64,000 bases of DNA from a virus. Lineage: Duplodnaviria; Caudoviricetes. Shown in pieces: positions 19,926 to 26,473 of the stretch. Positions within the stretch are counted from its first letter, which is position 1; each line of letters opens with the position of its first letter. The notes below the pieces were generated by a model. The model saw only the letters and a program-made list of their open reading frames with translations, had not been told where the DNA came from and searched no databases. A program made the translations under genes and the position numbers. Location of the stretch: IMG/VR virus record IMGVR_UViG_3300031418_000003; one strand, 5' to 3'.

Positions 19926-19987
19926 GGTAGCGATATCCTATTTCTATTTTGATCTCCAACCACTACTACTAACTGCGAGATAAAAAT

Positions 19988-20608
19988 ATGCAACTTAAAT
20001 TAATTACATTCGACAAAAACAATTATTCAATCAGTACTCAGTACATTGAGCTAGATGGCCTAGCCATTGTCGAGTACCGTTCTCCGATCACCGGTGAATT
20101 TTCTCCCAGTAACACCCAAATCCCGTCGATAACTGATCCCTCTATAATTGCAGTTATTATCCAGAATAGCTTTGCTAAAGCTGAACCTATTCAAATAAGC
20201 AAGCACCAGGGTGCTTATTTAACGGATTCCGGTAAAACGATGGAGGTGATTAACAGACCTTCAGACTTTGACGATATCCAAATTTGGATCAAGTATGATA
20301 AAGAAGAGGGAAACTGGGAACGCGAAACTCTCAGTAGTTATATGGACGAGATTCACTATCGACGTCTGGAGTATAAATATTTAGTTTCTCCCCAAGGAAT
20401 GAATCCAGAAGAAGTGGAGAAACAGATTTCCCTTACCATGGAGGTTGGTAAAAGCGTACTTTGGAGCCGTTATATAAAAGGTACGTCTTTAACTTTCAAA
20501 CTTTCCAGCCAATTCGAATATGACCGGTTCTACAACGACCCAGATTACCAGTTCATCAAAGTTCCGGTTGGTGTCGACCCTAACACGCAAGGGTTTAAAC
20601 TTACATAA
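19988..20608 (+). CDS. Hypothetical protein
   Basis: ORF, 206 aa. Confidence 0.75.
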   Translation: MQLKLITFDKNNYSISTQYIELDGLAIVEYRSPITGEFSPSNTQIPSITDPSIIAVIIQNSFAKAEPIQISKHQGAYLTDSGKTMEVINRPSDFDDIQIWIKYDKEEGNWERETLSSYMDEIHYRRLEYKYLVSPQGMNPEEVEKQISLTMEVGKSVLWSRYIKGTSLTFKLSSQFEYDRFYNDPDYQFIKVPVGVDPNTQGFKLT

Positions 20609-20629
20609 GTATATTATGTAATTCAATCG

Positions 20630-21645
20630 AGTGTAACTGTTTGCTGTTCTGAGGAATAGCATGGTTTCATTACCCCGTTATATTCGACTGTAAGACCCTC
20701 GTTATCCAGGTGTGGGTACATAACGAGGGCAAACCAGCAGGTTGCACTGCTGGACTAAATCCAAGAGTGAAAGCTGGCTTAAGTCCAGTAAAAACTAAGT
20801 AGCTCTTGGTGGGCGATGCAATAGTTTGAAAACTACTGTGTCATAGCAACGCGTCTAAAGTAAACGGTCCCTTCGTATAAGCTCAATACACTTTGGCGTC
20901 CGCGCCGAAGAAATAAGAGATGAACCCGAAACACTCTCAGGGACCCCTCTTCGGAGATAATAGCTTTAGAAACGGGAACGTTGTGCCCATTCCTTAACGA
21001 TGGTTATCCGTCGTTATCCCTTTGTACCAGTGGCTGATATCCAAGTAGAGCTTTAATTATACCTGACGGATAGCGCTCACAGTGTTTCAACCATTGGTAC
21101 AACCTCTTGAGGATCTTGAACGAAAACCGTAGGGTAACCGCTGAGCACATTGCGTTGCATTCAAGGCGGCTGTAGCAGGAGACTGGGTAGTCTTCCTGGG
21201 TGATATCAAGATCCTCAACCTTATCTACTCTCCGTGATATGGAGTAGACAAACCCTGTGGTGGGGGCATCGTAACCATCTGATGAGTCCGCGATGTAAAA
21301 AACAATGAGACGAAACGGGTTCTGTCAAAGGGGACTCCAACTCCAGACAGATCCGTCATGAATCGCTCCGCCTTAACTGTGAAGAGCATCCTCAGTCTAC
21401 GATTCTAGAGGAACAGCAGCGCTACCTGCAAAGGACCATTGGCAAATGGGATCTTAGGGTTAGCAAACAGTCCGCTCCTTTTGCCAGAGGAGAAGTTGTC
21501 AAAACCAAGAGGTGTAGACAGCCTTTAGTTCACTGTAGTGAAGAATCGGGGTTGCTCCCGTAGTAGTCACGAACAGTGATCTTTAGAGTGTTTACCGGAT
21601 AACAATATCGTACGCCCCTACCTCCTCACGGGGGTAGGGGTTTAT
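20630..21645 (+). ncRNA. Large (~1 kb) structured non-coding RNA with an embedded hammerhead
   Basis: ORF-free; nested long-range helices join 5' and 3' parts; ends at a terminator. Confidence 0.7.
21259..21372 (+). ncRNA. Type I hammerhead ribozyme
   Basis: CUGAUGA 21279-85, stem II GUC/GAC, GAAA 21312-15, stem III 21316-26/21346-55, GUC cleavage triplet 21355-57, stem I with loop-loop pseudoknot. Confidence 0.88.
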
Positions 21646-21646
21646 G
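21615..21646 (+). terminator. Terminator hairpin (CTAC/GTAG family)
   Basis: CCCCTACCTC-ctcacg-GGGGTAGGGG then TTTATGTTT. Confidence 0.75.
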
Positions 21647-21756
21647 TTTGGCTTTTCATTTGATCATATGAGCTCGTTCCATATATGTCCTAGGATGGAT
21701 GATATATGAAACATCTTATTATAGTTAATAAGACTATTTCGAAATAGAGGTAACAT

Positions 21757-22611
21757 ATGAGTTTGAGTAGCCCTGTCGATTTTGCTATCGACTATGTAAT
21801 GAACGGTCCAACCGATATCTCGGAATATCTGTTGAAGTTGGCCTTTCACAATCCCAATAACGGGTACGGTGGCATCTGGGGAAATCCCAATGACTCCTTC
21901 TCTGTAGAGCAGGGTATCCGTGAAAAAGTCATCGCCAAGATGGTTGCGCCGTTACTTCAGGTAGCCGGTGGTCAAACTGAGATCATTGATTTGTCCGGTG
22001 CACAGATTGAGAATTTAGCAGGCGGTGTTATTTGGGTTTCAGTACCCGACTTCATGACCGGTGGTCGTCGTATCATCGAGGTAATCGAAGTCTACCCAGG
22101 CAATATCAATCGAGCGGTTGCTAACGGTTATAATTTTGGCAGTGCTGCAACTTGTGGTGGCGGGGCAATCAATAACTCGCTGAGCCGATTGATGACTGGA
22201 TTAACAGACAGTAACGTTACTCGTTCTTTCAACAGCTTTACTATTGTTGGACCCAACTCTTTCCTGATTCGTGATGCGGGTTCGGCAATGTTTAACATGA
22301 TCGCCAAAGTGGTTCTCTCCTATGACGAGAGCTTTAACGGCGTACCTGTTAAGATGTTTGATAAGTTTGCTGAGTTAGTTGAACTCGGTACCAAAGCTTA
22401 CATCTATAAAACTTGCCGTCGCGGGATGCAAGAAGCAGTCTCTCGTTTTGGTGTAACTGTAGATGATGTCCAAGATGACATTCAGGGATACTCCGATGCT
22501 GCTCAGCAGTTCAAAGAGTTCTACAACGACAAGATGAAGAAGTACATGGCTTATGCTGATGCCAAAGGTAAAACCGACCAACTTAAAATGATTGTTCCAA
22601 GGAAACGATAA
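21757..22611 (+). CDS. Conserved phiKZ-like virion structural protein (putative)
   Basis: Position in the late cluster upstream of terL; GAGG RBS. Confidence 0.6.
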   Translation: MSLSSPVDFAIDYVMNGPTDISEYLLKLAFHNPNNGYGGIWGNPNDSFSVEQGIREKVIAKMVAPLLQVAGGQTEIIDLSGAQIENLAGGVIWVSVPDFMTGGRRIIEVIEVYPGNINRAVANGYNFGSAATCGGGAINNSLSRLMTGLTDSNVTRSFNSFTIVGPNSFLIRDAGSAMFNMIAKVVLSYDESFNGVPVKMFDKFAELVELGTKAYIYKTCRRGMQEAVSRFGVTVDDVQDDIQGYSDAAQQFKEFYNDKMKKYMAYADAKGKTDQLKMIVPRKR

Positions 22612-26458: not shown

Positions 26459-26473
26459 ATAATATAAGACTCA
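26459..26473 (-). promoter_or_regulatory. Phage promoter motif
   Basis: TGAGTCTTATATTAT on the minus strand. Confidence 0.65.

Follow-up and report, generated by a model that had tools for sequence, protein, structure and literature searches.

A hammerhead ribozyme predicted to divide a conserved non-coding unit of OBP/AH04-like jumbo phages into two structured RNAs

What does a phage do with a long intergenic region that encodes no credible protein, and why would such a region carry a ribozyme? The question is raised by positions 20609-21756 of IMGVR_UViG_3300031418_000003 (Duplodnaviria; Caudoviricetes), of which one strand of 64,000 nucleotides (nt) was analysed (the window, to which positions refer unless another sequence is named). 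A first-pass annotation of the sequence had read the region as a single closed non-coding RNA (ncRNA), its ends tied together by long-range helices, which would remain base-paired as a nicked two-piece RNA after self-cleavage. We find a large, highly structured and unclassified ncRNA unit containing a type I hammerhead ribozyme, and we put a probability of about 0.78 on this being a dedicated non-coding unit, belonging to a nucleus-forming jumbo phage of the OBP/AH04 type, that the hammerhead processes into two independent RNAs, a 5' module A and a 3' module B (Table 1).

Nucleus-forming jumbo phages possess RNA polymerases of their own, together with a compartment by which macromolecules are sorted. 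To our knowledge almost nothing has been described of their ncRNAs, and our literature search found no paper tying a hammerhead or a large ncRNA to these phages. Structured RNAs of large size and unknown function are, as far as we know, rare, and each new class has been informative (RNase P, OLE, the GOLLD/ROOL nanocages).

Results

A non-coding region conserved ahead of a virion gene

Protein searches with g12, the downstream gene (21757-22611), group the window with OBP, N1M2, EL and RisingSun-type phages, which we take to be phiKZ-like and nucleus-forming. The Erwinia phage AH04 is a relative, with 82% nucleotide identity across the ncRNA and 83.5% across the surrounding genes, and DNA identical to the window is present in phyllosphere and plant metagenomes. 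The ncRNA is kept at the same locus, 5' of the conserved virion gene g12, in 12 OBP/AH04/N1M2-type chimalliviruses: AH04, the IMG/VR contigs L004, L005 and L006, the Serratia phages Sureiya and Yubaba, Klebsiella phage N1M2, Kosakonia phage Kc263, Pseudomonas phage OBP, SXP01, Survivor and Edwardsiella phage pEt-SU. The homologous gene-free gaps measure 0.7-1.2 kb and mostly follow directly on a tRNA and glutaredoxin cluster. Scans of IMG/VR returned five family members and no more, and a metagenome scan with a loose hammerhead pattern gave ~120 unrelated hammerheads and zero new members of the family.

The region is non-coding. Its longest open reading frame (ORF) has at most 57 amino acids (aa), and no ORF is conserved among the 12 homologues, in which the longest ORFs vary in position and strand. 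In pairwise alignments with three relatives, substitutions show no preference for any codon phase (55/57/54 relative to AH04), and there are 12-20 indels (14 relative to AH04), mostly not multiples of 3. The neighbouring g12, at equal divergence, has 26/16/130 and no indels. Since there is no conserved ORF, no codon periodicity and a surplus of frame-breaking indels, the GenBank coding sequences annotated inside the ncRNA are probably spurious, judging from these comparisons. They are QYN80068.1 of Kc263 (63 aa; segment L138, 2013-2204), which overlaps that phage's hammerhead, and PQB72_gp252 of N1M2 (170 aa, minus strand; segment L002, 3627-4139); neither is conserved in close relatives.

Both boundaries proposed at first pass are retained. 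At the 5' end TATATTAT is part of a longer motif, AAACT-N7-8-TATATTAT, that recurs at 26459(-) and 29532(-), both intergenic and ahead of genes. By itself TATATTAT is not enriched (4 found, 2.1 expected); only the longer motif is suggestive. The five closest relatives share the whole block without a change, although the upstream gene differs, being unrelated in AH04. The terminator at 21614-41 is the strongest of the 9 kb scanned, and every relative keeps it, with compensatory changes, where its own unit ends.

A type I hammerhead with an invariant core

The ribozyme claimed by the first-pass annotation is real, a member of the known hammerhead class (Rfam clan CL00010), and self-cleavage is predicted after C21357. 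CUGAnGA...GAAA...GUC is invariant in 12/12 phages apart from N7, which can be U, C or A, as is normal for hammerheads; the core comprises C3 U4 G5 A6 N7 G8 A9, G12 A13 A14, the A15.1-U16.1 pair and, at the cleavage site, C17 (an H nucleotide). In the model-guided alignment 89.6% of cells pair, compared with 29-44% in slid-partner controls. Changes on both sides occur in 17/28 pairs, and 0/500 shuffles reached the observed values. By element, the compensatory pairs number 4/4 in stem I, 1/4 in stem II (the others are invariant), 5/11 in stem III and 4/4 in the distal hairpin. The pseudoknot, a tertiary contact between the stem I and stem II sides of the kind that hammerheads need to cleave fast, is 98% paired and compensatory at three of its five pairs, appearing as CAUCG/CGAUG, CGUCG/CGACG, UGUCG/CGACA, GUUCG/CGAAC and CCCG/CGGG. 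Each of the 12 phages matches a covariance model built on this hammerhead structure, at 75-106 bits; elsewhere in the window the model has no credible match, and it has none in Aeromonas phages or EL.

Two structured modules that match no Rfam family

Module A, which precedes the predicted cleavage site, folds more stably than expected as a single sequence (z = -5.7; equal-length coding control, -0.5) and far more so as an alignment measured against column shuffles (z = -10.0 for five close relatives, -15.4 for seven distant ones). Compensatory pairs number 26 in the close set (shuffle maximum 15) and 81 in the distant set (shuffle maximum 36). RNAalifold, run separately on the two sets, returned the same helix series at homologous places in different sequences. 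The 13-bp helix of the core domain covaries heavily, with six compensatory pairs; the 20845-50/20977-82 helix is GCAACG/CGUUGU in the window and covaries with GCAGCG/CGCUGU; and 5'-terminal helices equivalent to the P1 element have three to five compensatory pairs in distant relatives. A hairpin loop of the 20810-20990 sub-domain contains a conserved GAACCCGAA, and a shorter insert takes its place in L004 and L006.

Covariation backs five internal helices that had been drawn from the single sequence (20696-705/20720-29, 20734-40/20747-53, 20761-67/20803-09, 20866-72/20939-45 and 21107-19/21206-18). Two others hold in part. For 20854-60/20964-70 the sole support is a helix of the S group at about that place, which is a few nt out of register. 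The helix 21024-33/21091-100 is backed by one compensatory change in Kc263 (by eye); it is nested and so does not form the pseudoknot that had been proposed. The RNAalifold long-range pairs 59-62/1273-76 and GUCAC/GUGAC were rejected as spurious, as they do not covary and clash with the terminator or stem II.

Two short motifs of module A may be mentioned here. GAUAUC (21202-07), a junction strand next to the 13-bp helix, reads as a palindrome of 6 nt and is kept in 11/12 phages (GACAUC in OBP); by analogy with multimeric ornate RNAs it could be an intermolecular contact. The GUAAGACC box, with a small hairpin, is also found just upstream of module B in the Aeromonas phages PS1 (segment L142, ~995-1045) and pAEv1810 (L143, ~2045-2095), both lacking module A, and could be a remnant or a coincidence.

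Module B likewise yields a strong alignment fold (12 sequences; z = -13.4); its 28 compensatory pairs compare with at most 15 in the shuffles. Its hairpin at 21365-68/21384-87 occurs as GCUC/GAGC, GCUG/CAGC, GUCG/CGAC and GGAAC/GUUCC. The loop ACNGU pairs with ACN'GU at 21467-71, N/N' being U/A, C/G or A/U in 13/13 sequences. N' is also tracked by GAAGU-N''-G, and two mutually exclusive pairings are thus possible.

At Rfam gathering scores nothing matches in the window, and at E up to 10 the sole match is Hammerhead_3 (16.6 bits); the loci of 11 relatives give tRNAs only. The covariance models of GOLLD, ROOL, OLE, raiA and HEARO match neither the window (E up to 10) nor the relatives' loci. 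Neither module A nor module B has a match among the Rfam families; they are two well-supported new classes, and the hammerhead between them belongs to a known one.

Table 1 Features of the non-coding unit
Feature	Position	Strand	Description and basis
Promoter-like motif AAACT-N8-TATATTAT	20597-20617	+	Directly 3' of the upstream gene's stop codon; TATATTAT at 20610-17
Module A	20626-21357	+	~732-nt structured RNA, from 5' P1 helix to predicted cleavage site; fold and covariation
5' three-way element	20627-20687	+	P1 20627-37/20677-87; hairpins 20642-49/20654-61 (covarying) and 20663-65/20672-74
GUAAGACC box	20690-97	+	Invariant; heads segment 20690-20809
Two hairpins of segment 20690-20809	20694-705/20720-30; 20732-40/20747-55	+	Covariation
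Helix enclosing a hairpin, same segment	20761-68/20802-09; hairpin 20773-78/20783-89	+	Covariation
Nested sub-domain	20810-20990	+	Helices 20811-14/20985-88, 20845-50/20977-82, 20854-60/20964-70, 20866-72/20939-45
Core domain	21107-21218	+	13-bp helix 21107-19/21206-18; junction strands ACGAAA (21120-25) and GAUA (21202-05) conserved
Interior of core domain	21126-28/21199-201	+	3-bp helix plus two hairpins; many double changes
Type I hammerhead ribozyme	21267-21361	+	Covariation, covariance model, invariant core
Hammerhead pseudoknot	21267-71/21291-95	+	Stem I 5' flank with loop II, 5 bp; covariation
Hammerhead stem I	21276-78/21358-60	+	3-4 bp, open end (type I topology)
Hammerhead core CUGAUGA	21279-85	+	Conserved in family
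Hammerhead stem II	21286-88/21309-11	+	Closed
Hammerhead GAAA	21312-15	+	Invariant in 12 phages
Hammerhead stem III	21315-26/21346-56	+	Closed; distal hairpin 21330-33/21341-44, conserved loop CUCCA
Module B	21358-21612	+	~255-nt structured RNA; alignment fold and covariation
Module B hairpin	21365-68/21384-87	+	Conserved 15-nt loop; covariation
Module B pseudoknot	21376-80/21467-71	+	ACUGU with ACAGU; covariation
Module B hairpin	21475-79/21488-92	+	Alignment fold
Module B GAAGUUGU and GUAGACAGCC	21514-23 (GUAGACAGCC)	+	Conservation
Module B long helix	21528-33/21576-81	+	Alignment fold
Intrinsic terminator	21614-21650	+	12-bp stem with 8 G-C pairs, then UUUAUGUUUG

The modules occur apart

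In pEt-SU, SXP01 and Survivor the hammerhead leads straight into the terminator, which lies ~20 nt past the cleavage site, and no module B is found anywhere in these three genomes. The reverse is seen in five Aeromonas phages, which have module B-like sequence, or only its signature motifs, upstream of g12. Three of them (PS1, pAEv1810 and AhC3_1) were among the sequences used to build the module B model, and their 77-88 bits follow by construction; ZPAH34 is an independent match (33 bits, E 6e-6) and D6 has the signature motifs only (15 bits, E 0.2). Module A and the hammerhead are absent from all five. Neither turned up when Aeromonas phages, EL and distant contigs from IMG/VR were searched with nhmmer profiles and the hammerhead covariance model. 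Judged by this distribution, modules A and B are evolutionarily separable.

What could tie the two pieces after cleavage amounts to 3-4 bp of stem I at most. A covariation scan for pairing between A and B gave only 4-6-bp candidates at chance level, and none is claimed.

The same gap in three of the Aeromonas phages also contains a tRNA-like element that is not annotated, AGACGA..GGAAAGUCGCC...GGUUCGAUUCC, closed by an acceptor-like helix (AhC3_1, segment L144 ~1840-1915; ZPAH34, L146 ~1885-1960; D6, L145 ~880-960). Rfam makes no tRNA call on these elements at E up to 0.1.

RNA libraries contain pieces of the unit

The RNA runs were picked by words shared with the ncRNA, so only the position of a contig within the 4.5 kb compared is informative. 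Four metatranscriptome runs gave one contig each, all inside 21383-21721, and two of these carry an insertion typical of L006. Near-exact pieces (0-4 mismatches) from two cDNA runs, marked 'RNA? (probably DNA)', map to 20705-20975, 20739-20870 and 21374-21550, with no credible match in the genes on either side. A further two runs, of DNA, extend into those genes and cover 26/30 bins. This placement fits an ncRNA far more abundant than the neighbouring mRNAs. One metatranscriptome contig, X18 (21529-21721), passes through the terminator, which suggests either some terminator read-through or DNA carry-over. OBP reads in peach metatranscriptomes, identified by BLASTX, are uninformative and were set aside.

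Neighbouring genes

The gene directly 5' of the ncRNA (19988-20608, 206 aa) is not conserved. Homologues occur in L006 (77%) and L004 (36%); AH04 has none, and an unrelated 201-aa gene stands in its place (L001, 3400-4005). A metagenome contig, X11, swaps ~620 nt at exactly 19985-20610, the position of this gene. ARAGORN finds no tRNA gene in the whole 64,000-nt window; two to four tRNAs lie just upstream of the ncRNA in every relative examined (syntenic segments L002, L003, L138, L140, L141, L143 and L145). On the 3' side, an opposite-strand ORF of 141 aa follows the terminator in L004 (4572-4997, minus strand), L005 and L006, and is absent from the window and AH04.

Discussion

We propose that a primary transcript of ~1.02 kb would run from the phage promoter (~20597-20617) to the intrinsic terminator (21614-41). 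The pseudoknot-stabilised type I hammerhead would fold within this transcript and cut after C21357. Cleavage would free module A (~730 nt, with a 2',3'-cyclic phosphate end) and module B (~255-290 nt, with a 5'-OH start and the terminator as its end), the predicted ~732 nt and ~290 nt matching the sizes estimated at first pass. The two would fold separately, without staying paired, and act in trans as stable structural or ribonucleoprotein (RNP)-type RNAs. In relatives that lack module B the ribozyme would trim the terminator off module A, and would thus be a built-in maturation site for the 3' end of A and, where B is present, for the 5' end of B. Our confidence in the structural and processing claims, that is self-processing into two stable trans-acting RNAs, is about as high as in the reading as a whole, and much lower for any specific downstream role.

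Several observations weigh against this proposal. The assembled RNA contigs, which are few and short, indicate presence, not ends or abundance; the absence of contigs spanning 21357/58 is not significant. The promoter is deduced from a motif that distant relatives do not have; in those phages tRNA genes precede the RNA, and the two may share a transcript. Covariation rests on ~8 independent lineages, and as a single sequence module B folds unremarkably (z = -1.65). The Hammerhead_3 score falls short of the Rfam gathering score of 48.5. Because that best model is of type III and this RNA is of type I with long stems and inserts, the low score probably reflects topology and long inserts, not a defective core. 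Cleavage itself is a prediction.

The alternative that survives best, though we consider it improbable, makes module B and its terminator a cis-acting leader (riboswitch or attenuator) of the downstream virion genes, from which the hammerhead would uncouple module A. Module B always ends in a terminator, usually 50-110 nt 5' of g12, and one RNA contig crosses that terminator to 21721. There is also a switch-like element, CAAAC-N-GU, which has two exclusive partners tracking its variable base (the loop UAAC-N-GUG, and GAAGU-N-G). A leader should adjoin what it controls, and here other genes intervene: the 141-aa opposite-strand gene between terminator and g12 in three close relatives (L004-L006) and an HNH gene between module B and g12 in pAEv1810. 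Moreover g12 has its own conserved region ahead of it, its homologues persist in the three phages without module B, and no Rfam riboswitch matches.

The closed RNA of the first-pass annotation is less probable still. Its helices 20636-45/21462-71, 20643-49/21411-17, 20649-55/21389-95 and 21077-83/21376-82 form without a mismatch in the window itself, and in the whole-length minimum-free-energy fold the 5' region is likewise joined to the 3' end. In close relatives the four helices are broken and no compensating changes restore them; distant relatives do not have them. For the three end-closing helices AH04 keeps 7/10, 5/7 and 4/7 pairs (3/7 in IMG5), and a local hairpin, 20642-49/20654-61, covaries in their stead. 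The fourth helix, which was to enclose the hammerhead, is invariant only in the window's subgroup and absent elsewhere, and its 3' strand covaries with 21467-71 instead. A 3' piece that three phages lack and Aeromonas phages carry alone also speaks against a closed RNA. Since the closing helices fail in relatives and the modules are found separately, we favour a role for the hammerhead in processing, by which it would free two independent RNAs.

A self-splicing intron (group I or II), an IStron-like mobile RNA or the remains of a protein gene would suit the ~1 kb size, the HNH endonuclease genes near the unit in some relatives and some short motifs that may loosely resemble group I R/S elements, but is excluded as far as these searches and comparisons reach: no match to a group I, group II or other intron family appears up to E = 10, the unit lies between complete genes with a promoter-like motif and a terminator of its own, g12 is intact in all relatives, and a pseudogene is disfavoured by the extensive RNA covariation as well as by the even codon phases, the missing conserved ORF and the many frame-breaking indels.

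What the two products of hammerhead processing would do is a matter for speculation. There is a small chance that A and B are two new large functional RNA classes (for instance GOLLD/ROOL-like multimers, RNP scaffolds or catalytic RNAs), matured by the hammerhead to functional ends. If so, (i) the 2',3'-cyclic-phosphate and 5'-OH ends could resist host exonucleases, steer sorting between phage nucleus and cytoplasm, or feed host RtcB-type ligation; and (ii) GAUAUC (21202-07) and the loops CUCCA, UGGUG and GAACCCGAA would be intermolecular or tertiary contacts. The lead of phage-encoded end-joining enzymes was dropped: RtcB, which would have hinted at ligation or circularisation, was not found in five family genomes, where the only hit was a sub-threshold RNA_ligase-domain match in a large ORF.

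Setting the ends of large ncRNAs would give a bacterial or phage hammerhead a clear, testable role, which has been a long-standing question. The natural A-only, B-only and A+B variants are ready genetic controls, and the cultured members (AH04, OBP, N1M2, Sureiya, Yubaba, Kc263 and pEt-SU) make direct tests possible.

The unit can be compared with three known systems. Like GOLLD and ROOL (and OLE and raiA; cryo-EM preprint 10.1101/2024.12.08.627333), large 'ornate' ncRNAs of bacteria and phages, it consists of 0.3-0.8 kb modules with many covarying helices and pseudoknots, and lies next to tRNA clusters in phage genomes, here those of the relatives. It differs from GOLLD, ROOL, OLE and raiA in matching none of them in sequence or structure, in belonging to Gram-negative nucleus-forming jumbo phages and in having two separable modules joined by a ribozyme predicted to cleave itself.

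Theta ribozymes, which resemble that of hepatitis delta virus (HDV), sit beside phage tRNAs. They too are small self-cleaving ribozymes that form a built-in processing site for a neighbouring RNA end. The same arrangement is found in the hammerheads flanking prophage genes (PMC3088659). The products here would be two large structured ncRNAs, unlike the tRNAs or mRNAs of those cases.

The closest counterparts are the pseudoknot-stabilised hammerheads of bacteria, prophages and phages (PMC3088659; Perreault et al. 2011). In that work pseudoknots are documented to stabilise hammerheads that are active, and a role in transcript processing is proposed for those found in phage DNA (PMC3088659). The ribozyme described here has the same full core, three stems and GUC triplet, the same base-paired contact between the stem I side and stem II, and the same intergenic position in a phage. 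Unlike those of PMC3088659, it scores below the Rfam threshold, belongs to type I, has a stem I of only 3-4 bp and a long stem III with a conserved CUCCA loop, forms its pseudoknot between the stem I 5' flank and loop II, and is embedded within a ~1 kb structured ncRNA instead of flanking mRNAs.

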